IMG/VR virus record: IMGVR_UViG_3300020424_000002
Location: 32,001 to 96,000 of that record
Reading direction: 5' to 3' (one strand)
DNA: 64,000 bases
Source of the DNA: a virus
Shown here: positions 1-64,000 of the stretch, piece after piece
Layout of the letters: each line of letters opens with the position of its first letter
Position numbering within the stretch: position 1 is the first letter of the stretch
Translations under genes and position numbers: made by a program
Notes under the pieces: generated by a model
The model's database searches: none
What the model saw: only the letters and a program-made list of their open reading frames with translations
What the model was told of the DNA's origin: nothing

Positions 1-3000
1 GGAACTGATACTGGAGAGTTATGTCCTATGTCAACCTTAACTATTCCTTCATTGACATGATGTTCTTCTACTGTCGTTGCAGTAAAGTGTGTTGTTCCAC
101 CAGACTCATTTGTAATTGCTTCAGTTGTAAAACTTCCCAAATTTGCACCAAGTGAATCTGAACCTTCCCAAACAATAATAAACTTATTGACTGTATCATG
201 TTCCATGACACGACCTAACTTACCAGATGATGCACCTTTAACTGTTTGACCTATTGTAATTGCATTGTTTAATGTGGTATAATAAATTCTAGTATGTGCA
301 TAGTGTGGTAGTATTTCTAATTCTTTTATAACTTGATGACCATGTGCAGTTACATTTGCACGAATAATTCTGTCATATAATCCTACATCGGATTCTATAA
401 TATCTTCTCCAACAATAAATGCTTGTCCAGAACCTTGGTCTGTTTTAACACTTGCATCTGTAACTGAATTAACAATTGCTTTTGAACCAGATGATGCACC
501 AACAATACCATGTACAAACTCTATGTCTGTATCTGACTGGTCTGTTTTCCATTCACCACTTGTTTCCATAAACAAACTAAAGACACCAGGCCTACCATCT
601 TCTGATTGAAGTTGTTTCATTGCAGTATGGTCTGGTCTGATTTGGTCAATAATTAATGTGGTAGAATTACTTGAAACAACTCTACCTGTAATAGTTGCAA
701 TGTCTCCACTTGCAGTTTTAAATAAATTTTGTGATACTGTTTCTCCAACTGTAAATGTTGTTGAACCAGCTGGTGACATTCCTGTTGTGCTAACTGCTAA
801 TGATAATCTGTCGTCTGCAAGGAATCTCTCTGTTACTGCAACACCATCACCATTTTCTAATATTATATTTTGTTCTTCTGCATAGAATACATCTTCTTCT
901 CCAGATGCAACTGTACCTTCTTCTAAAATAATTTTTGCTGGGTCAATTTTAGAACCAATATAAAGTGTTGGAATAAATGACCTTGTAACTCTATCACCAT
1001 CAAATCCTTCGGTATTAGAACCAGCACGATATGTTTCTGCACTACCATCTATCTTATTACTGATTGCAACTTCACCAAAGAATATTGTACCAGCTGGATT
1101 TAATAACTGTTGAACCACTGAACGATAGTTGTTAATACTTTGACCAACTTTAATTACATATGAAAAGTCTTGATAGAACTTAGAGTCTTGAATTCTTTGT
1201 GCAGTTACAGATGGAAAACCAACATCACTTGTATAGTTTCCATCTACTTTAGATGTTGAATTATTTTTTGCACTAACTGTTGCTGGATTTCCTTCTAATA
1301 TAGTAAAACTTTTTCCATCGGATACTGTAACATGTTCTCCTATTTTAAAGAATCCTGTAATGTCTTCTAATGAAATAACTCCAGTATCACCATTAAATGA
1401 TTTTATTGTTGCAGTTGCATTACTGATACTACCAGTAACAGTTGTACCAGCAAGTGGGTTTGTACTTATTCTACCTATTACAAAGTGGTGATTAAAATCT
1501 GGAATACCTTGTGATTTATTAAAATGATTTCCAGATTCTATAACTCTTAACTTTCCTATTGAACCGATGTCATTACCATAAGGTAAAAGTCTTGCACCCA
1601 CTCCAGTAGTAAAACTGTTTTGTTTTGATGTTGCAGTAGCACCAGATGATGCACCTGTTAAAGTACTTCCTACTGTAAAAGTAGATGTATCAGTTGTAGT
1701 TTGTAATTTAGCAATAACAAGTTTTTTTGCACCTATATCATGGTCAACTAATTTACCTGTTGTAGTTCCAGATGTAATTGTTTCTCCTATCGTAAAATTA
1801 GGTGTGGTTGTTTCTGAATAAAATACTTCACCACCCACAAATGCTTGTGGAAGTGAGGTATATCCAACACCACTTGTTGTTATTCTGATTCTTGAAATTG
1901 CACCAGTTGGGTTTGCACCAGATTGGTCATAAAGTAATTTGTTTTCTCCTGTTGATTGTAATCCATCTTCCAGAATTAAAGTTGTTTCTTCTGGTTCTGC
2001 AAATACTTCTATTATTGTTCCAGCCTGACCAACATAATTTGCATGGGAACTGTTTGCATAAGTTCCTGTAAAAACAATAGAGTTTCCATTAAGTCCTACA
2101 TTTGCAGCTCCTCTAACTTCTTCAAATACTGAGAATGATACATTACCACCCTGTGCAGTTATGTTCTGAGATTCATCTGCCCTCTTTACTCTAACTACAA
2201 CTTTCTCTGGGTCATATACTAAAAGATTATCGTGTTTATCTTTTCCACTAAATGTAGTTTGTCCAGAAGACGCAGTAAATTCAAATGAACCAAATGTTGT
2301 TCCAGACTCTAAAAGTATGTCTCCAGAAATAGATGTAACTACACCCTGTGCAAGTGTTCCACCACTTCCTGTGTTATCAAAAACTACAAGGTCTCCATCA
2401 CTATATCCTGTTCCTCTTACATCTGGGTCTACTATAACTTTTTCTATTTTTCCATCTTCAACATTACCTATTAATGTTTTTGCAGATTGACCCACACCTA
2501 ATTCTGATTGTGGTAAATTAACTACAACATTTTCTGATTGTGAATACAATGCACCAGTAGATACTTCTTCTGATTTCATTGCACCACCAACTGCAGCTTC
2601 TGTTTGTGGTGTGTTAACTGTTTCTCTAACCATGATAGGTGTTTTACCATGGAGTTCGTTTGCAGTATTATCTGTTGATGTACCTTCTTCTAAAAGAATA
2701 AGATTGTTTGTTCCAACAACTAAGTTATCTGTTGCAGTTTCTAATTGGAATCCTTCGGTATCATCTGACTCTGCTGAGAAAAATCCTGTGTCTGTTCCAG
2801 ACTCAAGTCTGATAAGAACACTACTGTCTGTTGTGTCCATATCACTTATAATACCTCTAACAGTTGCAAGATGATACTTCCTTGAATTTTCTCTTGATTG
2901 TAATTCTACTGTGTCACCTATTGATAAACTTCCAATGTATGGCTCCATGATTACCACTTGGTAAACATTATCTCCTTCCCCACTCGTTGTTCTTGTAATT

Positions 3001-3851
3001 GTGTCTGCTTGAATATCGGTGACTACCTGTTGTTCGATATTTCTTTTTATTATTTTTCCTTTTGCATATTCAAGTAGATTTTCTTCTGAATGTAAATTTA
3101 ATACTGTTGATTCTGTCCATTTAGAATCAGATGGTTTTATCATGTTATCTCTAGGATAACTAACTTCTATGTCTTCGTTATATAATACTCTGAATAAGAA
3201 ATCATATGATGCCATACTACCTTTTGAAAGATAGATATTATTGATGTGTTTTGCAAGTAATCTTTTATCTGCAATTATTTTTGAATCAATTGTAGGCATG
3301 AAGTCTCTTCGGAAATATTCCAAAAAGTCTCCTGTAGTTTTATCTACATCTGCATAATCTAATAAATTATTTGCAGCGAATAATGCACCACCTTCAAAAG
3401 AGTTAACTTTTGCAGTGTACCCACTATTCTGACCAACAATTGTTTCTTCTGGTAAAAATTGTGCTTCGGTAAATACCTCGATATAAAGTTTGTTATCTAC
3501 AGTTGCAAGAACATCAATTCTTGCAGTTGCACCAGATGTAGAACCAACGACATATTCACCTATTTCCCAAAACCCTGTTTGTGTTTGACCTACAGTATTT
3601 TGTTCGAATAATATTTTTGCTTTGTCTATAGGTGATGGAGAAAAGGTTTTAGTCTCTTGTATGAGTGCCCCTTCTCCATCTTCTAATCCTATTGTCTCAA
3701 GGTCTGTGCCTTGTTCAAAGATAAGAATACCTTTCTCTAAGAAATCAAAGTAAGCAGTTAAAAACTTCTTAAATCCTTGACCTTCCTCATTCATGTACTC
3801 TGGTAAGAGTTCATGTAATTGGTCGGTTATTCTATCGTTGAGAATTGGCAT
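1..3851 (-). CDS. Large baseplate wedge protein (gp7-like), 3' end runs off window; missing from ORF track
   Basis: ATG at 3851 reading MPILNDRITDQLHELLPEYMNEEGQGFKKFLTAYFDFLEKG, later YLSKGSMASYDFLFRVLYNEDIEVSYPRD and RIQDSKFYQDFSYVIK, typical of T4-like wedge proteins; lies downstream of gp6. Confidence 0.75.
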   Translation of the reverse strand, partial: MPILNDRITDQLHELLPEYMNEEGQGFKKFLTAYFDFLEKGILIFEQGTDLETIGLEDGEGALIQETKTFSPSPIDKAKILFEQNTVGQTQTGFWEIGEYVVGSTSGATARIDVLATVDNKLYIEVFTEAQFLPEETIVGQNSGYTAKVNSFEGGALFAANNLLDYADVDKTTGDFLEYFRRDFMPTIDSKIIADKRLLAKHINNIYLSKGSMASYDFLFRVLYNEDIEVSYPRDNMIKPSDSKWTESTVLNLHSEENLLEYAKGKIIKRNIEQQVVTDIQADTITRTTSGEGDNVYQVVIMEPYIGSLSIGDTVELQSRENSRKYHLATVRGIISDMDTTDSSVLIRLESGTDTGFFSAESDDTEGFQLETATDNLVVGTNNLILLEEGTSTDNTANELHGKTPIMVRETVNTPQTEAAVGGAMKSEEVSTGALYSQSENVVVNLPQSELGVGQSAKTLIGNVEDGKIEKVIVDPDVRGTGYSDGDLVVFDNTGSGGTLAQGVVTSISGDILLESGTTFGSFEFTASSGQTTFSGKDKHDNLLVYDPEKVVVRVKRADESQNITAQGGNVSFSVFEEVRGAANVGLNGNSIVFTGTYANSSHANYVGQAGTIIEVFAEPEETTLILEDGLQSTGENKLLYDQSGANPTGAISRIRITTSGVGYTSLPQAFVGGEVFYSETTTPNFTIGETITSGTTTGKLVDHDIGAKKLVIAKLQTTTDTSTFTVGSTLTGASSGATATSKQNSFTTGVGARLLPYGNDIGSIGKLRVIESGNHFNKSQGIPDFNHHFVIGRISTNPLAGTTVTGSISNATATIKSFNGDTGVISLEDITGFFKIGEHVTVSDGKSFTILEGNPATVSAKNNSTSKVDGNYTSDVGFPSVTAQRIQDSKFYQDFSYVIKVGQSINNYRSVVQQLLNPAGTIFFGEVAISNKIDGSAETYRAGSNTEGFDGDRVTRSFIPTLYIGSKIDPAKIILEEGTVASGEEDVFYAEEQNIILENGDGVAVTERFLADDRLSLAVSTTGMSPAGSTTFTVGETVSQNLFKTASGDIATITGRVVSSNSTTLIIDQIRPDHTAMKQLQSEDGRPGVFSLFMETSGEWKTDQSDTDIEFVHGIVGASSGSKAIVNSVTDASVKTDQGSGQAFIVGEDIIESDVGLYDRIIRANVTAHGHQVIKELEILPHYAHTRIYYTTLNNAITIGQTVKGASSGKLGRVMEHDTVNKFIIVWEGSDSLGANLGSFTTEAITNESGGTTHFTATTVEEHHVNEGIVKVDIGHNSPVSV

Positions 3852-3863
3852 TATTAATTATCC

Positions 3864-4334
3864 TTAAGCAACAGTGTAAGAATTTCCACCTATAACAACC
3901 CAACCATATGTTGAACCTGTGTACAACATTTGGACTGAATCACCAGCACTATCAAGTTCTACATATGAACCACCAGTAAAAGTACCAGATGGACTTATAC
4001 GAACATTTTTACCGCCATCACTTACTAGAACAAAATATTTAATTTGTCCTGTAGAACCAGTTCCTACTGTTAAAGTGTCATGACTACCACTACCACTTGT
4101 TGTGATGTAGTGTGCCCATTTACCAGCTGTTGCAGTTGCTTGGTTCGAACTGAACGATACAGCTTCTGCTGATTGAGCAAATCCCAGATAATCTGGAAGG
4201 TTGTTTAAAACATTACTGACTGAAACCTTTTTATTTACTGGAGTTCCAGATGGGTCGTCAATAACATGAAGCAAGTCTTCACCTGCTATACCAGTCCCTA
4301 AATCTGATAGGGCCGTTACTTTTTTATCTGCCAT
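3864..4334 (-). CDS. Small virion/baseplate-associated protein
   Basis: [13 protein letters not shown]-terminus common in phage structural proteins; beta/Gly-Ser-rich; SD GAGG; structural context. Confidence 0.55.
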
Positions 4335-4415: not shown

Positions 4416-6287
4416 TTAGGAGTAACTAGACGAGGATGTATATCCCACCCCAGCACTCGTATCACCAGATGCAATGGTGTCTGTTGCACCAGTCACATCA
4501 ATCAATGACGAGTTTATATCTAGAAGATTACTTCTAAATGCAACACTGTCATTTGAATTCGGTTTCACTGTAAAGTGAATTGTATCATCGGTATTAACTG
4601 TTGAAAGTATATTAATACCTGTTGTTGTAATTTTTCCATTTGAATAGTCTACTGTTCCTGCTTGATTATCTGCGTAGACTCTTGTTGAACCAGTAATTGA
4701 ATATCGTCTTAAATTACCATCACCATCATCATCAAAGTAAAATGTATCTGTAAATCCAGATACTAAAAAACCACTGGTTTCTAATATACCACCACCAGCT
4801 TTGTTATGACCACTATGAGGATTGTAAAAGGGATTACCACTACCAAAGTCGATAGTGTATCCTTTACTTTGATTAAAAGTAGGACTAATTGTTTTTCTAA
4901 GTTTGACAGTTGTGATATTCGAAAGAATCGAGGATTCTGCACTGTCTATGTCTTTCGCTAGAACTGAGTGCCTAAAGATACCATCAAACCCACTTAAATA
5001 AGTGCTGTCATGTGTAATAATTGCAGCTCTTACAAGTGTTTCCAGTTCAGATACAGTCTTTGTTGTTGCTTTAGGATTGTACTTAAAGTTAGTATTCACT
5101 AGAATGTCTATGACATCTGCATCAATCAATTCTGGTCTGACTGTTAACATATTTAGTGTTTTTAGTTTTTGCTTTAATATAGTTTTCTCAGAACTAGTTA
5201 ATTTGTTAACTGTCTGTGAAGGTTTAATTGCAATGAATATTTTTCCATATTGTGGTGGGTCATTATCTTCTCCACCCCAAACTGAAATTGAATCTGCGCC
5301 TGGGTATAGAGTTTGCAGTTTAGACTTATAATCGTCTACTGTGACTAATCTATTTTGTGAAGTATAAAATTTAGAAGCTGCAAACTTAATTGAATCAATA
5401 GATTCTTTATCTTTACCACCACTTGAATTTGTTTTAGTTATTAAAGTTACATCTGTGTTACCACCAACTGAATCTGTCATAGTAAATGAAGATGAACCAT
5501 CGGTATGATTTTCATTTGTTACTAGATATGAAATTGTAATTGTATCTCCATCTAAAGGTTCTGCACTAACAACACCATCACCAAAATATACTTCAAATAA
5601 TCCTTGGTCATTTTCTTGCACATACCATACTGTGCTATTTGAGTTTACAGAACTTATATCAGTTGATTGTGACCATGCAGAAGATGAACCACCTGTTGAT
5701 TGCACTGTAACTGTAATACTAGATGTATCTACGAGTTCTTCTGTAAGTGGAAATCTTTGATTTTGTATTTGACCATTGTATGCAAAGATATCAGAGTTCA
5801 TAGTTCCTTGATATATTTCAAGATTCTCAAATTTAAATACACCATTCAGAGGTGTAATTGTTTGTGATTCTAATAATACATATGGATAATTAAATCCATC
5901 ATAAACTGTTTTAAATTTATGTCCTCTATTAAGAGTTAATGATGTAGGAGTCTCACCACCAATCAAAGGATTGTTAACTTGTAAATCTATGGTTGCTGAT
6001 GAGGCAGTTGCACTTGTTGGTGTGTATCCTATTTCTTTTGCACGAGATACTACATTCTTTCTTATTTGTGCAGTATCTAAAAATAATTCAGATGCAACCA
6101 TGTTTGCATTGAACGCTGAGACATGTGAACTATATGCAAGAAGGTCTATAAGTAAACTAATATTACTTCCTTCAAAATCATAGTCTTTAAGAGTCGATTG
6201 ACCCTTTAAATAGTTTTTTAAATTTTTCGAAATATCATCGAAATCTAAATCGGTGATATTGACTTGTGAACTTTTTACTGTTGCCAT
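4416..6287 (-). CDS. gp6: Baseplate wedge subunit gp6
   Basis: DLDFDDI..NLKNYL, DYDFEGS, FLDTAQIRKNVVS.AKEIGY.P, VYFGDG, QNRLVTVDDY, VWGGEDNDPPQYGK. Confidence 0.95.
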   Translation of the reverse strand: MATVKSSQVNITDLDFDDISKNLKNYLKGQSTLKDYDFEGSNISLLIDLLAYSSHVSAFNANMVASELFLDTAQIRKNVVSRAKEIGYTPTSATASSATIDLQVNNPLIGGETPTSLTLNRGHKFKTVYDGFNYPYVLLESQTITPLNGVFKFENLEIYQGTMNSDIFAYNGQIQNQRFPLTEELVDTSSITVTVQSTGGSSSAWSQSTDISSVNSNSTVWYVQENDQGLFEVYFGDGVVSAEPLDGDTITISYLVTNENHTDGSSSFTMTDSVGGNTDVTLITKTNSSGGKDKESIDSIKFAASKFYTSQNRLVTVDDYKSKLQTLYPGADSISVWGGEDNDPPQYGKIFIAIKPSQTVNKLTSSEKTILKQKLKTLNMLTVRPELIDADVIDILVNTNFKYNPKATTKTVSELETLVRAAIITHDSTYLSGFDGIFRHSVLAKDIDSAESSILSNITTVKLRKTISPTFNQSKGYTIDFGSGNPFYNPHSGHNKAGGGILETSGFLVSGFTDTFYFDDDGDGNLRRYSITGSTRVYADNQAGTVDYSNGKITTTGINILSTVNTDDTIHFTVKPNSNDSVAFRSNLLDINSSLIDVTGATDTIASGDTSAGVGYTSSSSYS

Positions 6288-6714: not shown

Positions 6715-7821
6715 TTATGTCCCTTCTAGTACTAGATTAGAAACAGATATCTCTTTTGGGAAACCAAGGAACTCTAAGAACGAACATAGAGTAAATGGTA
6801 TCGGTATACCAGATGGTATAAGCATCCCAAGATATTTTGAAAGTTTTTCTAGAACTGCTTCAAGTAACATTTGAGGTAGATTTTTTATGAAGTTATCAAT
6901 TCTATCTCTTAACTTATCTATATTCCAGTTTGGAAAATCTACTTTTTTAAACTCACCTATTTCTTCTAAATCAATTAAGTCACCTAATGTCTTTGGTAAA
7001 TCAAGTCCTACTAATTCTGCTGAATCAGCTATTTCTGATACAAGTGGTAAAGGGTATGTAAGTAATTCTGTTTGAAAATCTTTACCTGCTTCTTTAAATT
7101 GTTTTTTTAATCCCATAAGAAATTTATCGGTATCAAAATCTAGTTGACCACCATTTACAACCATGCCTGGCAAACTTAATAATAATGCTAGGTAATCTGG
7201 AAATGGGTCTGGTAATGCTTCAATTGTTTCTATTGCAGCTTCCAGAGCTTCATTTTCTAGTATCTTTGCTAGTGTACCAAAAACATTTCCTTTAAATAAT
7301 TCTTTTACTTTTGCAACAAACTCTTTCCATGCTTTAGTCATCTTAATTGCTGGTGCATCGATACCATCTGTACCATCCCAGTTTTCTAAAACAAAATCTG
7401 GAACAAGTAAATCTATTATATCATCACCAGCTTCTTGAAATTGTGTTAAGAGTTGTCCTTTGTAATCTGGGTCTGTTATTAATAGTCTAACATCAACTGA
7501 TATACCTGTAATTGGTTCTACTACAACCATAGGAACTTTTATTATTTTACTGAATACTTCTGCAAGTTTTACCAGTGGATATAATTTAAATTCTTCAATG
7601 ATTGCTTGGATTTTATTTTCCCATTCTAATTCTGGTATATCTAAAGTAATACCATCCCAAGAATGAGATAAAGGAAATGCACCTAATAATTCTTCAAGAG
7701 GTTTAATATATTCCCAACCATATTGATTCCCAATAAAAATTATTATTTTTTCTAATTCATCAGCAGTTGGTACAACAACCTTTGGACATGGGACTTTAAC
7801 TGGTGCAGTAGAAGTTGTCAT
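6715..7821 (-). CDS. Hypothetical 368-aa helical protein between gp5 and gp25
   Basis: Long ORF abutting gp5; no recognised family. Confidence 0.6.
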   Translation of the reverse strand: MTTSTAPVKVPCPKVVVPTADELEKIIIFIGNQYGWEYIKPLEELLGAFPLSHSWDGITLDIPELEWENKIQAIIEEFKLYPLVKLAEVFSKIIKVPMVVVEPITGISVDVRLLITDPDYKGQLLTQFQEAGDDIIDLLVPDFVLENWDGTDGIDAPAIKMTKAWKEFVAKVKELFKGNVFGTLAKILENEALEAAIETIEALPDPFPDYLALLLSLPGMVVNGGQLDFDTDKFLMGLKKQFKEAGKDFQTELLTYPLPLVSEIADSAELVGLDLPKTLGDLIDLEEIGEFKKVDFPNWNIDKLRDRIDNFIKNLPQMLLEAVLEKLSKYLGMLIPSGIPIPFTLCSFLEFLGFPKEISVSNLVLEGT

Positions 7822-9760: not shown

Positions 9761-11275
9761 CTAATATTGTGGTTCTGGCCCATGGTCTGCATGAGTATCC
9801 ATAGACACTTGATATCCATCCGAGGTGACTGTGAGTTGTGTTTCGAGTCCATCTCCTGTCCCTCTCCAAGTAATACCTTCTACAAGCATCTTGCCATTGT
9901 GCGTTATCTCATCCTTCACTGTAGTAGTCGGAGTTGGTTGTTTGATATCTATATTGATGACCATACCAGATGAAATATTAGTTCTCCCAGATATCTGAAT
10001 GTCCATACGATTACTCTCGAATAGTTTTTCTACTCTATCTCTGTTTAATTTATCACTCTCAGTCCCATATAATACACTATTTCCACTCGGATTTACTCCT
10101 TGACCCATGGAAAAAGGTGTATTATAATCAAAAGTGATAGACGCGCCTGGGTTTTCTATGATACTATCTCCCTTATGGGCAACAGTAGCGGTATCTAAGA
10201 CGCTTCCAACGCCCCCATCTGGTGGTATTCTGATAGATTCATTAGATAATCGGAAATTTGGCGCCTCACTTAAGGACTTTTTCTTGTAAGTAACTGCATC
10301 TCCACCTCTTTTTCCCTGTTTGAGAGAGAATTGTTGTGTAAATTGACTGTCAACAGTGGTCAAAGTCTTTGCAATAGGGTTATATACCTGTATAGCACCC
10401 CCATATAGGCCGTGAGAGTGATTATCTAAGACATTATGTGTGTTTCTCTTAATGTAGGAGAGTATGTCGTTCCCGCGTGCATCTACGAAGTCGTAATTAA
10501 AAGAGTCATCTCCATCTCCCATACGCGGAGCAAACTTCACATCTCCCTCTAAGTACTCTACTTTCATCATAGACTCCACATTGTGAAACTTAAAGCCATT
10601 TAATGCTGTCTGATAGAAGTAATAAGAGTCGCCCCAAGGCTTATCGGTGTCGTCTGAGGTGTGGTCTCTCAGCCACTCTAAGGTTTTATGCACTGACCAA
10701 TTAGGTACTAGGACTGAGGTTTCATCTCCCTCGGACTGAAAGACACTAAAGTAATTACCGAGTTCCTTCCCCCCTGGCGTATGCACTTTAGCATTGCTTT
10801 TATTCCCCTTAAATAATAATTTATCTTGACATATTTTATTTAATATATCTCCAGTCTTGCCTCTATACATCTGAGATATTCTCTGAGTTCTTGCTAAATA
10901 TTCCAAAGGAGAACAAAATTCTAGATTATATAATGTATTTGTAGGGTTATCTATGTCTCTGTAATGGACTGAAACATTAAATATTCGGAATACTTGGTCA
11001 ATTTGTTGGTCTGCTGGGACTATTTCTTCGTTTCCCTGTATACCACCGATATGTATTCGAATATATTCTTGACCAGTAAATCCAATACGATTAAAGAAAT
11101 TTGCAGAGTCCGCTAGTGTAATAGAACCTGTAAGAAACATCTGATAAATACTTTCAGATATCTCAAAGTCTACCATTAAATTACTTACTTCATAGGAATT
11201 ACCTTCATTATTACTAATAGTAATACTCTCAATCCTATAAGAATTAGGTTGATTTCTTCCGACTGTAATAGGCAT
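9761..11275 (-). CDS. Baseplate hub protein (gp27/gpD-like)
   Basis: ISESIY..FLTGSITLADS, IGFTGQEYI, YYFYQT..GFKF, ISG...I.SGMVI pattern; next to gp53. Confidence 0.7.
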   Translation of the reverse strand: MPITVGRNQPNSYRIESITISNNEGNSYEVSNLMVDFEISESIYQMFLTGSITLADSANFFNRIGFTGQEYIRIHIGGIQGNEEIVPADQQIDQVFRIFNVSVHYRDIDNPTNTLYNLEFCSPLEYLARTQRISQMYRGKTGDILNKICQDKLLFKGNKSNAKVHTPGGKELGNYFSVFQSEGDETSVLVPNWSVHKTLEWLRDHTSDDTDKPWGDSYYFYQTALNGFKFHNVESMMKVEYLEGDVKFAPRMGDGDDSFNYDFVDARGNDILSYIKRNTHNVLDNHSHGLYGGAIQVYNPIAKTLTTVDSQFTQQFSLKQGKRGGDAVTYKKKSLSEAPNFRLSNESIRIPPDGGVGSVLDTATVAHKGDSIIENPGASITFDYNTPFSMGQGVNPSGNSVLYGTESDKLNRDRVEKLFESNRMDIQISGRTNISSGMVINIDIKQPTPTTTVKDEITHNGKMLVEGITWRGTGDGLETQLTVTSDGYQVSMDTHADHGPEPQY

Positions 11276-14939: not shown

Positions 14940-15547
14940 AATTAGAAAGATTTAAAGCACAGATAGATAATTTGCAAAGACCCAATAGATATAATATATC
15001 AATGTTTGGCACTGGTGCAAAGACTGGTGGTCTATCAATCAGAGGATTAAAATGTGAATCTGCAACTATGCCAGGCAGAGGTTTCTTTACTCAAGAGGAA
15101 TCAGAATATGGGCCTAAAAGAGCAATCCCACACAAACCACAATATGACCAATTTGATTGTTCTTTTTATATGACAAACGATTTTGAAGAAAGAGAGTTGA
15201 TTGAATTGTGGCAATCACAAATAAATTCATTTCAAAGTGGTAATTTTCACAGTAAATTTCATGATGATTATACTGGAATTATATTACTAGAAATGTTAGA
15301 TAAAAATGATTTTGTTAATTACAGATGTATCATGACTGATGCATTTCCATTACAATTAGGTGTAATAAATGTAGGATATGAGAATACAGATGTAATGAAA
15401 TTTAACGCACAATTTAGATATAGATATTGGAATAGTGAATTTACTAATTCTAAACCATCTAACCTAATTACTGGTTATTTGGATAAATATTTTTCTAAAC
15501 TTGGAAACAAGGTAAGAGGTAAAATCGAAGATGCAATCTTTGATTAA
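14936..15547 (+). CDS. Baseplate tail-tube initiator (gp54/gp19-like)
   Basis: RPNRY, CESATMPG, DAFP, F.Y..W tube-fold motifs; position between gp2 and gp26. Confidence 0.75.
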   Translation: MKLERFKAQIDNLQRPNRYNISMFGTGAKTGGLSIRGLKCESATMPGRGFFTQEESEYGPKRAIPHKPQYDQFDCSFYMTNDFEERELIELWQSQINSFQSGNFHSKFHDDYTGIILLEMLDKNDFVNYRCIMTDAFPLQLGVINVGYENTDVMKFNAQFRYRYWNSEFTNSKPSNLITGYLDKYFSKLGNKVRGKIEDAIFD

Positions 15548-43158: not shown

Positions 43159-43492
43159 TTTCTATACTCTCAAAAACTTGTGCAGTACCATCGTTGATTC
43201 TTTTTTCAATCATTCCTGGCTTTGCAATTGCAAGTTGGTTTAAATTATGTCTTCTAAAAATGTCTAGATATTGATTCATTTCTTCTTCAATCTGAGCATT
43301 TTTTTGCATCATTTGTTGTAAGGATTTACCTTGTAATTCAAATGATTCTTTCATTGCAGTCATGGCTGCTTGTTGTTCCTCAACTGCACCTTCAAGTGCA
43401 AGGTTGTTTGCAGTTAATGTTTGGTTTTGATTATAAAGATAAAAGGTTGCAAGACCTAATATCAATATAATACCCATGAACATTTGATTCAT
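43097..43492 (-). CDS. Inner-membrane spanin (i-spanin)-like
   Basis: N-terminal TM plus coiled coil; A.AKPG.IE.RIN.GT. Confidence 0.7.
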   Translation of the reverse strand: MNQMFMGIILILGLATFYLYNQNQTLTANNLALEGAVEEQQAAMTAMKESFELQGKSLQQMMQKNAQIEEEMNQYLDIFRRHNLNQLAIAKPGMIEKRINDGTAQVFESIENDSKELDSLDDPSADINPNN

Positions 43493-43710: not shown

Positions 43711-43711
43711 T

Positions 43712-43963: not shown

Positions 43964-45038
43964 TTGCTCTCCACTGATAACATGACCAATATCTTGCTTT
44001 CCATTTAGGGCCAGGGTCTGAACAATTATGTCTTGCTCTAAATGACTTTCTTCGTTCTGCATTATCTCTGTTTATACCCATGTTAGGGTCTCCAAAACGA
44101 ACCACTACGACTTTTCCTTTCTCATTCTTTACATAGACCTTAAACTTCTTGTTAGGGTTCTCAGAAGTCCTTATAGGGTCGTTTAGTGTAACTTTCTTAC
44201 CTTGATACTCTGCTTCTGTAATTACATGGTCATAATATCCTAAACATTCTGCACAACATTCTTCTTGAGCTCTTTTGATTTGGTCTGCTGTAGGAGCTCC
44301 TTTTTCACCCTTTTTCCTCATCTTCTCACCAGAACCAGCTTTAATTCTTGCCTTTTTCTTTCTGATATTGTCCCAGAGACCTTCGTCTAATTCATCATCA
44401 CCTAATTTTAAAAACATTCTATTTTTAATTTGTTTTTTATCGGATGCAGTCATTCCTGCTTGTTTTGCAAGAGAGTTGATAAATGCAAGACCATCTTTTT
44501 CATTTGCTTTGTATCTCCTACCCATTTCTTTCTTAAGACCATTTGCAATTATGTCAAGAACATGAGATACATTTGTCACTATCCTACCATCTGTCATAAG
44601 TCTTGCCTCATTTACAGACTGTAGTGAACCTTTTAAAACAACTTTTTTCTTTTCTTTTTCTTTGTTTTTTACAAGAGGTGGATGTTCGTCTTCGTCACCA
44701 GCAACAATCATACCTATTTGATTTATTAAAGATGTAACTACTGGTGTGGGTAATTGTGATAATTGTTGCATCACATCTTTAGATAGACCTTTTACATTTT
44801 TTAGTTTCTTTTTCCAAGAAGAGATTGCAGTCATATCTTTTTTTCTTGATTCATTCATTGACTGACCAGGCGTATCATCCATATACCTTTTCAAAAGTTC
44901 TGGTGTTCCTACTTCTCTATAACCAGAGTCTTCTTTCTTTTTCTTTTTACGAACAATAGGTTTATCAGTAGAAACTGCAGCTCCAGTTGAGTTTACTGGT
45001 GCGTCTTCGAACATTTCTTTAAACCTTTTTATTTTCAT
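43944..45038 (-). CDS. Modular basic protein, putative internal head polyprotein
   Basis: MKIKRFKEMFE; modules start after SMNE, SVNE, ELDE, VITE; C-terminal AEYQG...RRKSFRARHNC...RYWSC domain. Confidence 0.6.
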   Translation of the reverse strand: MKIKRFKEMFEDAPVNSTGAAVSTDKPIVRKKKKKEDSGYREVGTPELLKRYMDDTPGQSMNESRKKDMTAISSWKKKLKNVKGLSKDVMQQLSQLPTPVVTSLINQIGMIVAGDEDEHPPLVKNKEKEKKKVVLKGSLQSVNEARLMTDGRIVTNVSHVLDIIANGLKKEMGRRYKANEKDGLAFINSLAKQAGMTASDKKQIKNRMFLKLGDDELDEGLWDNIRKKKARIKAGSGEKMRKKGEKGAPTADQIKRAQEECCAECLGYYDHVITEAEYQGKKVTLNDPIRTSENPNKKFKVYVKNEKGKVVVVRFGDPNMGINRDNAERRKSFRARHNCSDPGPKWKARYWSCYQWRASAKVDN

Positions 45039-49465: not shown

Positions 49466-50458
49466 TTATGCCATACTTCTTTTTATTGCACCCAGAGCTT
49501 TCATAAAAGATTGTTTGTTCTTCCCTAATAATTTGATTAGTTGTACTCTCATTTGTGGTTTTACTCTATCTAGTGCCATGTTAATTATTTTTGCATTTTT
49601 TTGGGTTACCTTAATTGTTTTACCATCGTCTAGTTTTACATCACTACCAGTTCTTAAATCCTCTGCACCTTTAAGTTGTACTTGAAGATTTTGGTCTGGG
49701 TCATTTGCACGAGGGCCTAACTTTTTAACTCTATCCCTTTGTTGAATAAAGTCTTTAATATTTTGTGAGATATCTTTATCTGGTTCAAAATCTGTATACT
49801 TACCAGCACCGACTGCTTGTGCAAACTTTTTACTTGGTGTTGATGACCCTTTTGCAAAGTTTACTATTTTATTCATTGCATCTTTAAAGTCTTTTGCTTT
49901 ATTTGCAATGTCTCTTATTTTATTATTTGCAGCTGGACTGTTTGCACCAAAGTCATGAAATGCACGAGCTTCATATGCAAGAACTTCTCCATACATTTTT
50001 TGATAGTCTTTAGTATACTTAGACTTACGCATAGGTTCTTTTCTTGCTTTTTTATCGCCTGGTGCATCTTTATATGCAGATGGGTCTGAATCAGATTTTT
50101 CTTTTCCTCTTTGGAAATGTGCATCTCTTTTGGACTTAGTAGATTTTTTGAGACCTTTAAAATACTTTGCTGGTTGAGTTCCTTTTTTATCTTTGATATC
50201 TTTGTCTTGAGGTTCTCTTTCCTCATCTCTGAGACGAGGTTCAGTCCTGTTATACTTTTGTGTAACTATTGAAAGATTTGACTTATCGTTATTCATAGGA
50301 TTACCATCTTTATGATGCACATCTTTACCAACAATACCTTTGGTATCTTTTAGTTGTCTTCGTGCATGATTTCTACCAGCTCTTCTTTTTTTCTGTTCTG
50401 GTTTAGAATGGTAGTTTTCGTATTCTTTTTTGTAGTTCCTTTCTTTGAAAGTCTCCAT
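49466..50458 (-). CDS. Modular protein: HNH-like module plus basic modules
   Basis: METFKE|RNYKKEY, DVHHKDGNP.NN..NL; Y.KGL.KS...DPSAYK.APGD module. Confidence 0.6.
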   Translation of the reverse strand: METFKERNYKKEYENYHSKPEQKKRRAGRNHARRQLKDTKGIVGKDVHHKDGNPMNNDKSNLSIVTQKYNRTEPRLRDEEREPQDKDIKDKKGTQPAKYFKGLKKSTKSKRDAHFQRGKEKSDSDPSAYKDAPGDKKARKEPMRKSKYTKDYQKMYGEVLAYEARAFHDFGANSPAANNKIRDIANKAKDFKDAMNKIVNFAKGSSTPSKKFAQAVGAGKYTDFEPDKDISQNIKDFIQQRDRVKKLGPRANDPDQNLQVQLKGAEDLRTGSDVKLDDGKTIKVTQKNAKIINMALDRVKPQMRVQLIKLLGKNKQSFMKALGAIKRSMA

Positions 50459-50467: not shown

Positions 50468-53065
50468 TTAGAATGAACTTATAACATCTTTGTGATTTGA
50501 ATACTTACTTGATGATTGTCTCATGAGATTATCATAGATTTGACCTCTGGTTCTCATTAATCCATCTGGCATGTGACCGAGTGCTTTGTGAGTCATCATA
50601 ATACCTTTTAATGCATCTAGTCCTTTTTTATCACCAAGAAGTTTTGCAAGATGCATTAATGAACCAGTGTGGTCATTTCTATCTGTCATTTTTTTAATCT
50701 TGTTGATATCTGCAGCTGACATTTCTTTTTTCTCTACAAGTTCTTCGATACCTTCTTTGATATCTTCTATCTTCTGATGCCACTCTACCATCTCATCTGT
50801 ACCTTCTTTATAGAAGATTGCTTTCTTAGTCACTGGGTCTAATCCCATGTACTTACCTTTGAGAGAAGGCATCTTAACACCAATGTCTCTTAACATTGCA
50901 ACCATCTTATGAAGTCTTTCCCAGTTTGCTGGTGGATGTTTTTGTTTCCAGATTTGACCCATTAATTTGTCAATACTTTTCTCTGGGTCTTTTTCATCAA
51001 ATGGTAGTTTAGTCATCTTTGCCATCATCTTACCAAATGTTTTAAGTTTAACAACATTTGCTGGTGATAGGTTTTCAATCACTACATGATGACCTGTAAA
51101 TTCTTTTGATTCGTTTGCATGTCTAAGTGCAAGTTTAACTGCTGGATTCTTAGATAATCCTCTTTTAAGTTTTTCTATTTCTTTGATTGCATAGTTAGTT
51201 GCACCACTTAAATCAAGTGCAAGTTCAATTGCTTTCTTAACTGTTTTATCTCTTGCAGCTGCTTTTTGTTTTGGATTGTCTCTGTAATATTTGTTTATTT
51301 CTTGACCTGTAAGTTTAGATTTACCCATCTTAGATAGTGGGTCTAACTTACCATCTTTGACTCTTTCATCTATTTTCTTACCATCTTTATCATACTTACC
51401 AGACTTTTTCTTTGCAATTGCAATTGCAGCTTGTTGTGCAAAGTTTTTACCTTTACCTTCTGATACTTCTTCTCGTATTTTTTCCATACCTTTTGGATTT
51501 TTAGTCACTATATCTCTCTGAGATAATATTTTTATTAAATCTTTGACCTCATCTGGTGCAATCATAAAACTTTCATTTCTAAATCTAATAGAATACATTG
51601 TATTCGGTGCTGGAAAGACAAGATTTATTGAGAATTTACCAGATTTTTTTAATCTAGGCATCGGTAGTGATGTTTTCATTGCTTCCTCAAGTTCTTCACT
51701 TACTGCTTTTTCTAAATCATCTGCTTGTTTTGCATGTTTCTTACTTGCTTTCTTCAACATAGTGACAATCTTTTTCACTACTGGTTTGTCGTCATTATCG
51801 AGTTCTTCTGGTAAAGGTTTTACACCTTGTTGTTTGAACATCTTCATCAAGGCATTGTTAGTTGCAAGTTTGATTTTGTTATCTTTACCCATTGCAACCA
51901 TAGTATTTTTAAATCCTTGAGGATTTTGTTTTTGCATTGCCATTGCAACTTTAACACCAGTCATGTTAAGAAGTTTTGCAACACCATACTGGAACATTTT
52001 ATCACCACCAGTTTTAAATAGTTTGTCAATCATTTCACCAGCAGATGCTTCTACTAGTTCAAAATCTTCTTTTTGCATTGCGAGTTTAGTGTTAAGAGTT
52101 CCAATCATCTTAAGGATTGTATCTCTTGCATCTAAAACTTTTTTGTAATCTTTGTTATGAACTGTATTCTTAAGTTCTTTATCACCCATGTTTGCAATCT
52201 TCTGATAAGCTTTTAAGACACTCTGCATGTCTTTAGAAACCTTTTTCATTGCCTCGACTTCTTGTCTCTTGACTTCATCTAAAGATTCTTTTCTATACTG
52301 TCTCATTAATGAATCTATTTGTTTTTGGATTCTATGATATTCATCACTGTCATACTTGACATCCATCTTTTTATTTCTAAGATTACTGATTCTATCTTTA
52401 ACTGAATCAGGCATAGTTGTTAGTGCTTCTAACATATTGTCATCTGGATGTATGACATGTGCAAGGTCTTTATCGTGATTTAGATTACCTTTTTTCTTCT
52501 TGACTATAAATGCATTTACTCTTGCCATTCCCCACTGCTGTGGAGTAGTTCCTGGCCTGTGTCCTGTTTTCCATGCAGCCATTCCACGATTGTAAACTTT
52601 TCTTAATGTTCCTACTGAGATACCAGATTTTTTAGCTTTAGCTGCAAGACCTTTAGATTCATCTAAATCATTATCTTCCATCATCTTCATAAGAGGTTTA
52701 TCTTTTTGGATGTCTTTCATTAAGTTGTCAATATCTTTGTCATTACCCTTGAAGTTTACATTATTATCATCTACAAATTTACCTTTGGATTGTGTACCAA
52801 ATGTTATTTTAACTTTTGGATGTTTTTTTGCATACTTACTGATTAATGCCTGTTGAATTTTTTTCTTGTTTTTCATTGGTACAGACATCATACCATCTTC
52901 TTCAAGATAATCTAACCAATCATTGATTTCTTCGTCACGAACATCTTCGATGAGAGAGTCAATTAACTCCTCATTTAAGATATCTTCATTTGGTGTTGCA
53001 TACATTTCTCTGTATGCATCTGCAACAGATGACAGAGTTTTTCTGTTTCTCATGTAGTTTGACAT
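50468..53065 (-). CDS. 865-aa modular basic protein, putative polyprotein
   Basis: Acidic N-terminus, then about ten Lys-rich modules separated by (L/I/V)xE linkers. Confidence 0.6.
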   Translation of the reverse strand: MSNYMRNRKTLSSVADAYREMYATPNEDILNEELIDSLIEDVRDEEINDWLDYLEEDGMMSVPMKNKKKIQQALISKYAKKHPKVKITFGTQSKGKFVDDNNVNFKGNDKDIDNLMKDIQKDKPLMKMMEDNDLDESKGLAAKAKKSGISVGTLRKVYNRGMAAWKTGHRPGTTPQQWGMARVNAFIVKKKKGNLNHDKDLAHVIHPDDNMLEALTTMPDSVKDRISNLRNKKMDVKYDSDEYHRIQKQIDSLMRQYRKESLDEVKRQEVEAMKKVSKDMQSVLKAYQKIANMGDKELKNTVHNKDYKKVLDARDTILKMIGTLNTKLAMQKEDFELVEASAGEMIDKLFKTGGDKMFQYGVAKLLNMTGVKVAMAMQKQNPQGFKNTMVAMGKDNKIKLATNNALMKMFKQQGVKPLPEELDNDDKPVVKKIVTMLKKASKKHAKQADDLEKAVSEELEEAMKTSLPMPRLKKSGKFSINLVFPAPNTMYSIRFRNESFMIAPDEVKDLIKILSQRDIVTKNPKGMEKIREEVSEGKGKNFAQQAAIAIAKKKSGKYDKDGKKIDERVKDGKLDPLSKMGKSKLTGQEINKYYRDNPKQKAAARDKTVKKAIELALDLSGATNYAIKEIEKLKRGLSKNPAVKLALRHANESKEFTGHHVVIENLSPANVVKLKTFGKMMAKMTKLPFDEKDPEKSIDKLMGQIWKQKHPPANWERLHKMVAMLRDIGVKMPSLKGKYMGLDPVTKKAIFYKEGTDEMVEWHQKIEDIKEGIEELVEKKEMSAADINKIKKMTDRNDHTGSLMHLAKLLGDKKGLDALKGIMMTHKALGHMPDGLMRTRGQIYDNLMRQSSSKYSNHKDVISSF

Positions 53066-53798: not shown

Positions 53799-55220
53799 TC
53801 ACTTCTTCGACTGTGATTGTCTAAACTTTTTAAGTCGTTCTACTTCACCTTTTTTAACTTTAGGGAAGAGTTTTTTACTTAATTTTGCAATTGCACTCTT
53901 CTTTTTATCTAATTTTTTACCGATTGCAATTCTAGCACCCATTGAAAGTTCACTTGCAGCCTTACCACCAGACATTTTTTTAAATAAAATTGCTCTTGCA
54001 GTCTTCATTGCTTTTGTTTTCAATTGGTCATTAGTCTTCATTCTTTTCTTTTTACGAGCTTTAGTTCTTGCAATCTTCTGTGCAAGTCGTCTCATTCTCA
54101 TACCAATTGCCCTTCTTTGTTGCATATTAAGTACTTCTAACTGTAATTGTCTTGTTAATTCACTAGTAAATTTACCTTCTGCAACCTTATGTTGTTTCTT
54201 TGCCATGTTCATTGCTGTCCCATGCATTACTTCTTTTGCTTTATCACCATACTCTTTTTCAAAGTAATCTTTCTTTTTCTTTAAATCTTTGTAAATCTTT
54301 TCTTTCGTAGCCATAACTGCATCGGATACTTCGTTTGTATCAGTCGGATTTGTACTTCTATTTTTAAGTCTAGTTAATCTTCTTCTATCTGCATCCATTT
54401 CTCTGTCATGTTTAATTTTTAATTGTTCTTTTTCTCTAGATTGTTTGTCTTTTAGGTTATCTGTAGTTTCATCTTCATTGAATAATCTTTTTTCCATATC
54501 TACTGGATGTTCATAGGAAGCTGCAAGTGCAACATTTTTCATAGGTTTCATGGTCAATGCAGATTTCCATGCAGTTGCCATTTTGTTTGAAGGGAAAGAT
54601 TTTACGAATGCTCTAAGTCTAGGGAAAATTTTAGTGGTGTTTTTATCCAAATCATTCATATCACCATCATTATCTACAATAAAAAAGTTTTGTCTACCAA
54701 ATGTAGCTTGTAGTTTACCCATGTTTTTTCTGACTGTTGCATGATTGCTTTGTACTATATTGTCTGGGATACTTCTTTCTCGTTGTCTATTTCTATCTAA
54801 TGCAGTTTCTAATGAAGTATTTACGAATACCATTGCAGTTTCGTATCCTAAATCTTGAAGGAGTTTTCTTTGTTTTACGATATTTTTTACATCTCTTGCA
54901 GTTGAATCAATAACAAGTCCTAACCGACCTTTAATATACATTTCTTGTCGTTTACCAGTGATTGCTTTTGCATGAACACGAATTGCATCTCTTTGTTCTT
55001 CTTCACTCTCTGGCATTTTAAGTGAAAGACCTGCTTTCTTAAGACCCATTTCAAATGATTGGTCTGAGTTTACTGGTCGTAAACCCATAGAACCGAACCC
55101 TAATTTTTTAGCTGCAAGTGATTTACCACTGCCTGGGCCACCTGCCATAAAGACAGCCTTAAATACGCCTGGGTCGTTAATTCCTTCGTTAAGCGAGTCG
55201 TATGTATTTTCCAATATCAT
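53799..55220 (-). CDS. Zeta-toxin/AAA_33-like P-loop kinase plus basic modules
   Basis: EGINDPGVFKAVFMAGGPGSGKS, NSD, VIDST, VFVNTS...A..RN..R.R. Confidence 0.75.
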   Translation of the reverse strand: MILENTYDSLNEGINDPGVFKAVFMAGGPGSGKSLAAKKLGFGSMGLRPVNSDQSFEMGLKKAGLSLKMPESEEEQRDAIRVHAKAITGKRQEMYIKGRLGLVIDSTARDVKNIVKQRKLLQDLGYETAMVFVNTSLETALDRNRQRERSIPDNIVQSNHATVRKNMGKLQATFGRQNFFIVDNDGDMNDLDKNTTKIFPRLRAFVKSFPSNKMATAWKSALTMKPMKNVALAASYEHPVDMEKRLFNEDETTDNLKDKQSREKEQLKIKHDREMDADRRRLTRLKNRSTNPTDTNEVSDAVMATKEKIYKDLKKKKDYFEKEYGDKAKEVMHGTAMNMAKKQHKVAEGKFTSELTRQLQLEVLNMQQRRAIGMRMRRLAQKIARTKARKKKRMKTNDQLKTKAMKTARAILFKKMSGGKAASELSMGARIAIGKKLDKKKSAIAKLSKKLFPKVKKGEVERLKKFRQSQSKK

Positions 55221-57057: not shown

Positions 57058-58269
57058 TTATTTGTCCCAGTCTTTTTGTACTGTAAAGTTATTTAGTGAG
57101 AACTCCATTCGGTCTACTAACTTCACTGCACCACCAAGATTATTGTCAATTGCAACAAAACCCTCTGGTGCAACGACATCAAAACCATTATCTTTTTTTA
57201 CAAACAATTGTGTTAATTGTTTTGCTTTATTTACTTTAGTAAGTATCTTAATCTTTGCATAGTTTATCAATGCTTGAAACTCTACTAAAGTTTTAAGTAA
57301 TGTTAAATGTTTTCTAATTTGTGTAAGATGTATGTTTTTGTTTTTCTCTGCTGTCTTTTTTGCAGATGTAACTTTGAGTTTATCTATTTGTGCATCAAAC
57401 TTTTCCTCTACAAATTTAAAATAACCATCTGCATGATTCTTATAGTTTAATCGTAAAAAGTTTGTTCCTTCTCTTACTTTACTATTGTGATATGTTTTGT
57501 AACTCATGCCTGGCTTCATCTCTGATTGATGTTTTAAGAATGAATCTAGTGATGGTTTTCTTATCTTCTGAAAAACCTTACCTGTTCTGGACATCAATCT
57601 GGTTATTTCTGCACTGTCTTTTTGCGTAAAGGTTGCAGTTCCAGATACATCATTGTAGGATGCATCATCCATCCAGACCTTACTTGTTTTTTTAAGACCA
57701 GATATGTTTGCACCAAATGATGCAGTTAAATCTGATAATGAATCTCCTGTATAAGTTGTATGAAATACAATACCCACATTTGCTCTTCTCATAGTAGATG
57801 CAAGTTTAGATGTAGAAGGTACTGCATACATGATTGTATTTGGTTGAAAGGTTTCATACGATTCACCATTGATATCTTTCTTTTCTAGGTCACCTTTTGT
57901 AAACATCAAGTCACCTTGAAGTATATCTTTAATACCGATATCTTTCAGATTGTTATAACATGCTTTGAATTTTTCTGCAAGTTGTCCAGATAAATCTGCA
58001 TTTATCTCTGCAATTGATGTGTAGTATTTTGGTGTTTTGTTAAATAAACTTTTCTTTGCAACAAAGAATTTACCTGTCTCTGGGTCATTACCACAAAAGA
58101 TAGCAGGAGCTCCATCCCATTTTACAGTGACATTAACACTTCTCTTACTTCCAGACATCAACATGTCACGAAGTGACCTTATAAAGTTTATAGATGCACG
58201 ACCACCATCAATACCATTATTGAATATTTCGTCTTCTATATGTTCTAAATGTACATTAGGACTTGGCAT
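57058..58269 (-). CDS. Conserved T4-like protein of unknown function
   Basis: HLEHIED, VKWDGAPA, QGD.MF, FQPNT..Y, PEGFVA, KLVDR.EFS..NF; KxDG suggests a ligase-like nucleotidyltransferase fold. Confidence 0.7.
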   Translation of the reverse strand: MPSPNVHLEHIEDEIFNNGIDGGRASINFIRSLRDMLMSGSKRSVNVTVKWDGAPAIFCGNDPETGKFFVAKKSLFNKTPKYYTSIAEINADLSGQLAEKFKACYNNLKDIGIKDILQGDLMFTKGDLEKKDINGESYETFQPNTIMYAVPSTSKLASTMRRANVGIVFHTTYTGDSLSDLTASFGANISGLKKTSKVWMDDASYNDVSGTATFTQKDSAEITRLMSRTGKVFQKIRKPSLDSFLKHQSEMKPGMSYKTYHNSKVREGTNFLRLNYKNHADGYFKFVEEKFDAQIDKLKVTSAKKTAEKNKNIHLTQIRKHLTLLKTLVEFQALINYAKIKILTKVNKAKQLTQLFVKKDNGFDVVAPEGFVAIDNNLGGAVKLVDRMEFSLNNFTVQKDWDK

Positions 58270-62815: not shown

Positions 62816-62816
62816 A

Positions 62817-63469: not shown

Positions 63470-63493
63470 TTATACCTCACAATTTATACATAT

Positions 63494-63735: not shown

Positions 63736-63741
63736 ACTTAT

Positions 63742-63771
63742 ATTATATGAAAAAATGTACCTATGTGTCAA
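63742..63771 (-). promoter_or_regulatory. Sigma70-type promoter with GGTACA box
   Basis: TTGACA-N4-GGTACA-N8-TATAAT. Confidence 0.85.
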
Positions 63772-64000
63772 TCCCAGTGTGGTGGTTGATTTTCAAAATC
63801 GTGATGAATATTACCAGCTATACAATATCTATCTGTTTTAACTGTTACTGGTTTTACTTGATGAAAACAGTATGCTGGAAAGACTACTAATTGTCCTGTA
63901 TGTGGTGGAATGCTAAGCATGGTTTTCCCCCATTGATGTGTTTTTTCTTGCACATGGTCTGCACACATAGATAAATCCATTTCTATACTACCATCTGGGA
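63768..64000 (-). CDS. 2OG-Fe(II) oxygenase-like protein, C-terminal part (5' end probably outside window)
   Basis: P..G.LVVFPA...H.V.P......R.CIAGN. Confidence 0.7.
   Translation of the reverse strand, partial: PDGSIEMDLSMCADHVQEKTHQWGKTMLSIPPHTGQLVVFPAYCFHQVKPVTVKTDRYCIAGNIHHDFENQPPHWD

Follow-up and report, generated by a model that had tools for sequence, protein, structure and literature searches.

Record, window and site content

The DNA considered here (the window) is a stretch of 64,000 nucleotides, bases 32001-96000 of the 146,136-bp IMG/VR record IMGVR_UViG_3300020424_000002, and our subject is the loss of a set of short restriction words from this genome, together with an exemption for those copies that overlap the dinucleotide GpC. 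The record is linear, approximately 81% complete by CheckV and of 34% G+C, with about 90% of its genes on the minus strand. Judged by its genes this is a marine phage of T4-like type; NrdA shares ~75% identity with the cyanomyovirus protein, and the curli genes CsgF/CsgG are present, as in Pelagibacter phage HTVC008M. Near-identical DNA occurs in marine metagenomes from at least 8 studies dated 2014 to 2025. Outside the window the record also encodes a C5-cytosine methyltransferase next to a TET/JBP dioxygenase, which are described below with their neighbours.

Within the window the words GATC, ACGT, CCGG and GGWCC (W, A or T) are each found 0 times, and CCWGG is found 19 times, always as GCCWGG or CCWGGC. 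A first-pass annotation, made by reading the window, had noticed none of the first four words and had listed the 19 flanked sites; the counts agree with it on both points, only one coordinate having moved (10773 instead of 10774). As a null model we used 200 synonymous-codon shuffles of the whole record, in which every protein and the codon usage were kept, and unless the window is named all counts and expectations below refer to the whole record and these shuffles. GATC (0 against 413 expected), ACGT (0 against 225) and GGWCC (0 against 66) are missing altogether, while CCGG survives in two copies (54 expected), one GCCGG and one CCGGC. There are 49 copies of CCWGG and none that reads HCCWGGD, so that unflanked CCWGG stands at 0 against 54 expected and GCCWGG at 41 against 6.6. 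All 49 copies are therefore flanked by GpC, compared with a mean fraction of 0.19 in the shuffles (maximum 0.28; p ~3e-36), which is lower than the approximately 30% that had been proposed as the chance level. The observed/expected comparison split by flanking base, which had been suggested as a check, gave neither unflanked CCWGG nor a normal frequency of GATC or GGWCC, and the conditional depletion of restriction words is confirmed, far beyond chance. In 35 of the 49 exempt sites the flank lies on one side only, so that, if a modification is the cause, a single modified base must suffice, namely the outermost C of the site on just one strand.

Two further remarks of the first-pass annotation concern words of related composition. 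It had noted that Asp-Pro is written GAC CC and Gly-Pro GGG/GGC CC, which is entailed by the absence of GATC and GGWCC; GGSCC (S, C or G) is present 58 times against 8.7 expected. It had also described sites containing GC as abundant (in the window TGCA 679, AGCT 110, GGCC 43 and GCWGC 71), and this holds for TGCA, with 1558 copies against 932, whereas AGCT (0.86 times expectation) and GCWGC (1.0 times) are just not avoided.

Forced proline-glycine sites and codon choice

The clearest view of the exemption is given by the dipeptide Pro-Gly, which is encoded by CCN GGN and so always creates either CCWGG or CCSGG, the latter containing CCGG. With both CCWGG and CCGG avoided, Pro-Gly cannot be encoded without a site, and indeed in-frame Pro-Gly accounts for 46 of the 47 CCWGG of called genes. 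Of 47 Pro-Gly dipeptides, 40 have GGC as their Gly codon, a codon that otherwise accounts for only 76 of 3179 Gly codons (2.4%); in the other seven, Pro is preceded by a codon of the form NNG (AGG, ACG, GCG or GGG, for example). Either choice, GGC after Pro or NNG before it, causes one strand to read GCCWGG. The sites of the window are listed in Table 1; the one at 43215 falls in a small minus-strand open reading frame (ORF; ...AKPGMIEKR...) within 43159-43943 that was missed by ORF-based gene calling.

Comparison with other phages places this codon choice in context. The complete, cultured Methylophilales phage Melnitz uses GGC after Pro in 49 of 70 cases, and HTVC008M does so in 11 of 115, compared with 11% of its Gly codons overall. 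At 14 Pro-Gly positions common to the present phage and HTVC008M, the former has GGC 12 times and the latter GGT 11 times. Pro-Gly itself occurs 47 times in this record, 70 times in Melnitz and 115 times in HTVC008M, where ~110-114 would be expected; 30 positions are Pro-Gly in HTVC008M and another dipeptide here, against 12 in the reverse direction. It seems that restriction avoidance has changed the protein sequences, halving the number of Pro-Gly dipeptides. Gly-Pro, being low in each of the three phages, is not informative.

Table 1. CCWGG sites of the window (window coordinates) with the codons around each, followed by three cassette ORFs (record coordinates)
Feature	Position	Strand	Codons or description
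CCWGG	586..590	-	Pro-Gly in AGG CCT GGT (RPG); flank from preceding G-ending codon
CCWGG	5299..5303	-	Pro-Gly in TAC CCA GGC; flank from rare GGC
CCWGG	7166..7170	-	Pro-Gly in TTG CCA GGC; both sides flanked
CCWGG	10146..10150	-	Pro-Gly in AAC CCA GGC; flank from GGC
CCWGG	10773..10777	-	Pro-Gly in ACG CCA GGG; flank from rare ACG before Pro
CCWGG	15071..15075	+	Pro-Gly in ATG CCA GGC; both sides flanked; sole window site in a plus-strand gene
CCWGG	19919..19923	-	Pro-Gly in GGG CCA GGT; flank from preceding GGG
CCWGG	29753..29757	-	Pro-Gly in GTG CCA GGC; both sides flanked
CCWGG	35663..35667	-	Pro-Gly in GTG CCT GGC; both sides flanked
CCWGG	36593..36597	-	Pro-Gly in TTT CCA GGC; flank from GGC
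CCWGG	38569..38573	-	Pro-Gly in GAA CCA GGC; flank from GGC
CCWGG	43215..43219	-	Pro-Gly in AAG CCA GGA; flank from preceding AAG; small ORF
CCWGG	44011..44015	-	Pro-Gly in GAC CCT GGC; flank from GGC
CCWGG	44866..44870	-	Pro-Gly in ACG CCT GGT; flank from rare ACG
CCWGG	50058..50062	-	Pro-Gly in GCA CCA GGC; flank from GGC
CCWGG	52551..52555	-	Pro-Gly in AGG CCA GGA; flank from preceding AGG
CCWGG	55132..55136	-	Pro-Gly in GGC CCA GGC; flank from GGC
CCWGG	55168..55172	-	Pro-Gly in GAC CCA GGC; flank from GGC
CCWGG	57509..57513	-	Pro-Gly in AAG CCA GGC; both sides flanked
Methyltransferase	115586-116851	-	C5-cytosine methyltransferase (PF00145, 3e-49)
255-aa ORF	116848-117615	-	before the methyltransferase; no Pfam or PHROGs family match
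329-aa ORF	113526-114515	-	between TET and kinase; no Pfam or PHROGs family match

The same exemption at other words

A scan of all words against the codon shuffles exposed further purged words, and the survivors of each follow the same rule. All 11 copies of CCGT/ACGG overlap GpC (6.7% expected; p 1e-13), with unflanked copies at 0 against 231, and the same is true of all four CCTCC/GGAGG (unflanked 0 against 108). Of CCTGA there are 22 survivors, 19 of them overlapping GpC (unflanked 3 against 208; p 8e-19), and of CCTGCA 13, 11 of which are GCC-flanked (unflanked 2 against 78). Eighteen of 19 CCCG are found as GCCCG or CCCGC, and 12 of 13 CTGAAG as GCTGAAG or CTGAAGC. For the two words with variable centres the exempting dinucleotide is internal, GC being contained in all 58 surviving GGNCC and in all 21 surviving GGNNCC, the GC-less variants of which number 0 against ~68. 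In the window the survivors are again all or nearly all GpC-overlapping (CCGT 4; CCTGA 12, 10 flanked; CCTGCA 5, 4 flanked; CCCG 5; CTGAAG 6; GGNCC 32; GGNNCC 9), and no GC-less GGNNCC is found there. Copies flanked by G occur at about their expectation (GCCTGA 19 against 17), and H-flanked copies are reduced to 0-3%.

Asymmetric words are purged in both orientations. GGAGG is found twice on the coding strand against 94 expected, and CCTCC once against 20, from which it follows that selection works at the level of DNA instead of translation; avoidance of Shine-Dalgarno sequences was considered as a cause of the loss of GGAGG and is ruled out by the purge of CCTCC from the same strand.

The exempting contexts can be read directly from these words, and are GCC (for CCWGG, CCGT, CCTCC, CCTGA and CCTGCA), GCT (for CTGAAG) and GCG (for CCCGC). 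GpC in the context TGCA gives no exemption, in that CCTGCA is purged unless it is GCC-flanked and GTGCAC is found 0 times against 19. The word GCAGCA is also strongly reduced (5 against 103, and 0 against 93 on the coding strand), all five survivors being AGCAGCA, and Ala-Ala is never written GCA GCA even though GCA provides 76% of Ala codons; this avoidance is absent in Melnitz. The first-pass statement that purging is needed only at sites without GpC is accordingly too simple, as CCTGCA, GTGCAC and GCAGCA contain GpC and are purged nonetheless.

The methyltransferase and TET cassette

A search of the rest of the genome for a C5-methyltransferase acting at GpC, which the first-pass annotation had proposed, returned a single C5-cytosine methyltransferase (Table 1), of a kind known to act at this dinucleotide. 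Its domain is of full length, covering positions 2-324 of the profile, and it carries the motifs FFAGGGG, SPPCPPFS, CENVKG, QKRERVF and GLMVAP (corresponding to motifs I FxGxG, IV PC, VI ENV, VIII QxRxR, and X), which are invariant in 10 relatives. The end of the gene is overlapped by an ORF for a TET/JBP dioxygenase (PF12851, 2e-11), in which the iron ligands HxD...H and the 2-oxoglutarate-binding Arg are present (AHLD, LHGV, RLS); a sequence search of the PDB with this protein returned nothing meaningful. The gene order is gp45, gp44, 255-aa ORF, methyltransferase, TET, 329-aa ORF, P-loop kinase3 (PF18751), gp62 and regA, which places the cassette between the clamp-loader genes gp44 and gp62 and the kinase downstream of TET.

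Phage C5-methyltransferases of this cluster type methylate GpC[C/T], and their TET partners oxidise the resulting 5-methylcytosine; those of clade I, marked by an insert in the target recognition domain (TRD), act at GpC[C/T/G] and not at GpCA, and clusters with a P-loop kinase have been proposed to phosphorylate 5-hydroxymethylcytosine (5hmC) (PMC8256090). Compared with the Melnitz-type enzymes, whose genes follow that of a DNA polymerase in the manner reported for clade II, the methyltransferase of the present record has an insert of 22 residues in its TRD. A P-loop kinase or a glycosyltransferase in the cluster is a further mark of clade I, and the PF18751 kinase is present here. Exemption in this genome through GCC, GCT and GCG, with none through TGCA, agrees with what clade I enzymes recognise.

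No N6/N4 or Dam-type methylase was found in the 146-kb record. The proposed search for deazaguanine genes came back empty, with neither TGT/DpdA (PF01702) nor QueC (PF06508) in the same 146 kb (81% complete), while all 14 control genomes were positive, and the deazaguanine route was rejected on these profile searches.

Distribution of the footprint among relatives

In our sample the footprint follows the methyltransferase among related phages. Melnitz, whose enzyme is 55% identical to that of the present phage and which also has TET and the kinase, has 68 copies of CCWGG, none of them unflanked, and no GGWCC. In 80 IMG/VR loci found with the methyltransferase (911 kb) there are 134 copies, of which three are unflanked, all of these in a single locus. 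Among phages without it, HTVC008M has 112 unflanked of 136, P-SSM7 142 of 171, and 79 HTVC008M-like loci (808 kb; no methyltransferase in the 16 records searched) 401 of 538. S-CRM01, which has a CmoX-like gene but neither TET nor this methyltransferase, has 184 unflanked of 252. The near-complete records G001 (99%), G018 (90%) and G020 (94%) have neither methyltransferase nor footprint. Footprint-positive fragments of at most 40 kb that do not cover the methyltransferase region are uninformative on its presence, and a search with a structural protein of the window yielded just 14 short contigs.

Within the methyltransferase-bearing lineages the purges are modular. Those of GATC, ACGT, CCGT, CCTCC and CCTGA are switched on and off independently of each other, while unflanked CCWGG is absent from all loci but L050, and GGWCC from all except L050 and the Melnitz-like group. 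Such modularity fits different lineages having met different nuclease repertoires. L050 (IMGVR_UViG_3300000168_000002), with three of seven CCWGG unflanked, two GGWCC and four CCGG, is possibly a recombinant or a chimeric contig.

Phages without the methyltransferase have purges of their own. HTVC008M (L092-L099) has lost TGCTGCA (0 against 29) and GTGCAC (0 against 13), and is low in GGCC (22 against 81), AGCT (153 against 436) and GATC (83 against 338), and P-SSM7 (L113-L122) has neither CCGG nor GCGC in 182 kb. In an intermediate group of relatives by NrdA (L222-L225 and L230), GATC and ACGT are nearly absent, the TGCA fraction is ~0.3-0.36, GGWCC is present and CCWGG is unflanked, which looks like purging without a GC shield.

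Concentration of GpC in TGCA

The excess of TGCA means that 47% of all GpC in the record lies in this context, and GCT, GCG and GCC are at 0.70, 0.43 and 0.83 of expectation. The TGCA share of GpC is 37-48% in relatives with an insert-type methyltransferase (L002-L065), 27% in Melnitz, 20% in Melnitz-like loci, a group that includes L072 although it has the insert, and 14-18% in relatives without the methylase. This concentration would fit either a reduction in the number of self-modification sites or the decay of methyl-cytosine, two causes that are not separable here; a deamination signature, sought as an excess of GTB of the kind predicted by analogy with CpG decay, was not distinguishable from that of HTVC008M. 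Separately, in a group of HTVC008M-like loci of ~41% G+C (L172, L173, L175, L176, L183 and L202) TGCA makes up ~1% of GpC, and in this lineage TGCA itself seems to have been purged, the opposite of what is found in the phage of the window.

A proposed mechanism and its alternatives

We consider it quite probable that the phage marks its own DNA at GC[C/T/G] with its C5-methyltransferase, that the mark blocks nucleases, and that words the mark could not cover were purged while words forced by the protein were recoded to lie under it. In such a scheme the C5 of cytosine would be modified after replication in G-C-[C/T/G], and the mark would probably be processed further, to 5hmC by the TET/JBP dioxygenase encoded next to the methyltransferase, and by the P-loop kinase. 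A modified C in a recognition site would block cutting, even when present on one strand only, and selection would be exerted by sequence-specific nucleases, of which the host population's restriction enzymes are the likeliest. Three effects would then be expected in the genome: the removal of words never able to hold a modified C (GATC, ACGT, GGWCC and GC-less GGNNCC); the removal of unflanked copies of the C-initial words CCNGG, CCGT, CCTCC, CCTGA, CCTGCA, CCCG and CTGAAG; and, where Pro-Gly is required, the fixation of rare GGC or of a G-ending codon before Pro, which would give GCCWGG on one strand. As the same G-C flank exempts ten unrelated words, a modification in GpC context is the only single cause that would explain all of them. 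What the analysis establishes is the word statistics, the way in which codons are chosen, the genes and the link with the methyltransferase among relatives; a mark on virion DNA, its chemistry and the owner of the nucleases are inferred. A broader claim is one of co-evolution between the genome and its sparse mark, in which uncoverable words were purged (even at the price of half the Pro-Gly dipeptides), forced words recoded and surplus targets funnelled into TGCA to give a complete shield; in our view it has a little less than an even chance of being right.

Several points weigh against this explanation. GCAGCA, which reads TGCTGC on the lower strand, is purged despite the internal GCT there, so that either this position is non-protective or the GpC rule is incomplete, and a few survivors of other words have no flank at all (three CCTGA, two CCTGCA, one CCCG and one CTGAAG). 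The clade and specificity of the methyltransferase are taken from its gene neighbourhood and TRD insert, not from published sequences, and the missing part of the record could hold another writer. The likely hosts, of SAR11/OM43 type, have streamlined genomes and are not known to carry as many as a dozen restriction systems. Finally, the public data for this phage consist of assembled contigs and whole-genome-amplified Illumina runs, and no nanopore runs were found.

The alternatives differ in which part of the scheme they replace. The shield may be real but written by some other GC-directed enzyme, encoded in the 19% of the genome that the record does not cover or in genes that lack annotation, such as the 255- and 329-aa ORFs of the cassette; a GC-specific C5 writer of another type, CmoX, does exist in the marine T4-like phage S-B43 (PMC12783734). 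We regard this as improbable, given that in our sample the footprint is present in all records with the methyltransferase and absent from all near-complete records that lack the enzyme, and that the contexts GCC, GCT and GCG, not TGCA, are those measured for this type of enzyme (PMC8256090). Unlikely to about the same degree is that the shield works as proposed against nucleases of the phage itself or of competing mobile elements, serving for example in the degradation of host DNA. The purge of CCWGG in methyltransferase-bearing lineages is universal and that of GGWCC nearly so, and about a dozen words is many for hosts such as the OM43 strain of Melnitz, with its very small genome (PMC9004378); on the other hand, no candidate nuclease was identified, and the independent variation of GATC, ACGT, CCGT, CCTCC and CCTGA by lineage is what differing host repertoires predict. 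Moreover, degradation of host DNA as in T4 requires self-marking that is global, not sparse.

It is very improbable that the modified base is guanine, as 7-deazaguanine placed in GGC/GpC by a DpdA-type transglycosylase. Each exempt site is also GGC on one strand, and phage 9g reportedly carries dG+ at GA and GGC, a finding attributed to Tsai et al. in 2017. Against it stand the empty PF01702 and PF06508 searches with their positive controls, the presence of a C5-methyltransferase and TET instead, and the exemption of CTGAAG through GCT and of CCCG through GCG, contexts without GGC. Of the first-pass proposal that the phage modifies C or G in GpC, then, the GpC context is supported by the single flank rule, the cassette and the relatives, and C5 of cytosine is retained while guanine is not. 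Scarcely credible, too, is a reading without any modification, whether by nucleases intolerant of a G before or a C after their site or by a translational codon-pair preference for GGC after Pro. As an account of a flank bias it is minimal and has no specific support; it would need identical flank sensitivity at ten unrelated words, it must contend with an exempting GpC that is internal to GGNCC and GGNNCC and with purges in both strand orientations, and HTVC008M, a close relative of similar composition (33% against 34% G+C), shows no preference for GGC after Pro. Self-marking by the phage's own methyltransferase remains the explanation that we prefer.

Implications

Both the enzyme cluster and the avoidance of restriction sites are known, but we found no paper that describes a purge conditional on the flanking base together with synonymous recoding of those sites that the protein forces. 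The role of methyltransferase/TET clusters as a restriction shield was later doubted by their discoverers, who considered a mark limited to GpC unlikely to give broad protection from restriction and for whom it was unknown whether phage or host DNA is the substrate (bioRxiv 10.1101/2023.12.21.572611). The footprint would provide evolutionary, if indirect, evidence that the mark is on the phage genome in nature and that it blocks site-specific nucleases; by altering its own sequence the phage would enable a sparse mark to suffice, and restriction pressure would reach the level of protein, as in the contrast of Pro-Gly counts with the relative that lacks the methylase. If the broader claim of co-evolution is right, phage genomes can be taken to record the specificity of their writers and the restriction repertoire of uncultured hosts of SAR11/OM43 type. 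The footprint would offer a purely computational route to methyltransferase specificity and to the nuclease landscape of abundant marine bacteria that are hard to culture. Phage Melnitz on OM43 strain H5P1 is a cultured system in which these ideas could be tested directly.

Comparison with known systems

Avoidance of palindromes is a classical property of phages, of which the loss of GATC from staphylococcal phage K is an example. The present case resembles it in that short nuclease words are wholly lost by way of synonymous choices, and is unlike it in being conditional on the flank, tied to the phage's own modification and extended to the protein level, with rare codons that rescue forced sites. 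It is equally well known, from overlaps with Dam and Dcm sites, that the methyl group of an overlapping motif can block a different enzyme, often from one strand. Such overlap blocking is a laboratory nuisance in cloning, whereas here it would be an evolved, genome-wide strategy.

Among viral enzymes, M.CviPI of a chlorella virus is likewise a virus-encoded orphan C5-methyltransferase with a GpC dinucleotide as its target (cited in PMC8256090). It acts at any GpC, whereas the TGCA-context GpC of the present phage provides no shield, and M.CviPI is not known to be accompanied by TET or a kinase in the chlorovirus. The CmoX/CmoA/CmoY system of S-B43 carries out GC-specific C5-carboxymethylation of cytosine, which blocks a restriction enzyme in vitro (PMC12783734). 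The methyltransferase described here is similar to CmoX in having a homologous C5-transferase fold (36% identity to the S-B05 copy), an SPPC motif, a marine T4-like phage as its carrier and a GC target, the last being read from the genome in our case. It differs at Arg350 of CmoX, which binds the carboxymethyl group of carboxy-S-adenosylmethionine (Cx-SAM) and corresponds here to Leu392, an invariant Leu in the family, and for this reason a CmoX-type carboxymethyltransferase was ruled out despite the shared SPPC. Its partner is TET, without neighbours of CmoA or CmoY type, and S-CRM01 with its CmoX-like gene has no footprint.

The closest known counterparts are the C5-MT/TET clusters (5mYOX clade A/B) of Burke et al. 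2021 (PMC8256090), with which the present cassette shares the adjacent methyltransferase and TET/JBP genes, P-loop kinase3, a clamp-loader neighbour and an origin in marine T4-like phages. Nearest of all are the P-loop-kinase contigs 49, 76 and 88 and the clade I methyltransferases, the TRD insert of the enzyme of this record being a putative counterpart of the one described for clade I. Those clusters were characterised in Escherichia coli from contig fragments and their role was left open, whereas here the cassette is accompanied by a footprint of purging and recoding across the whole genome.

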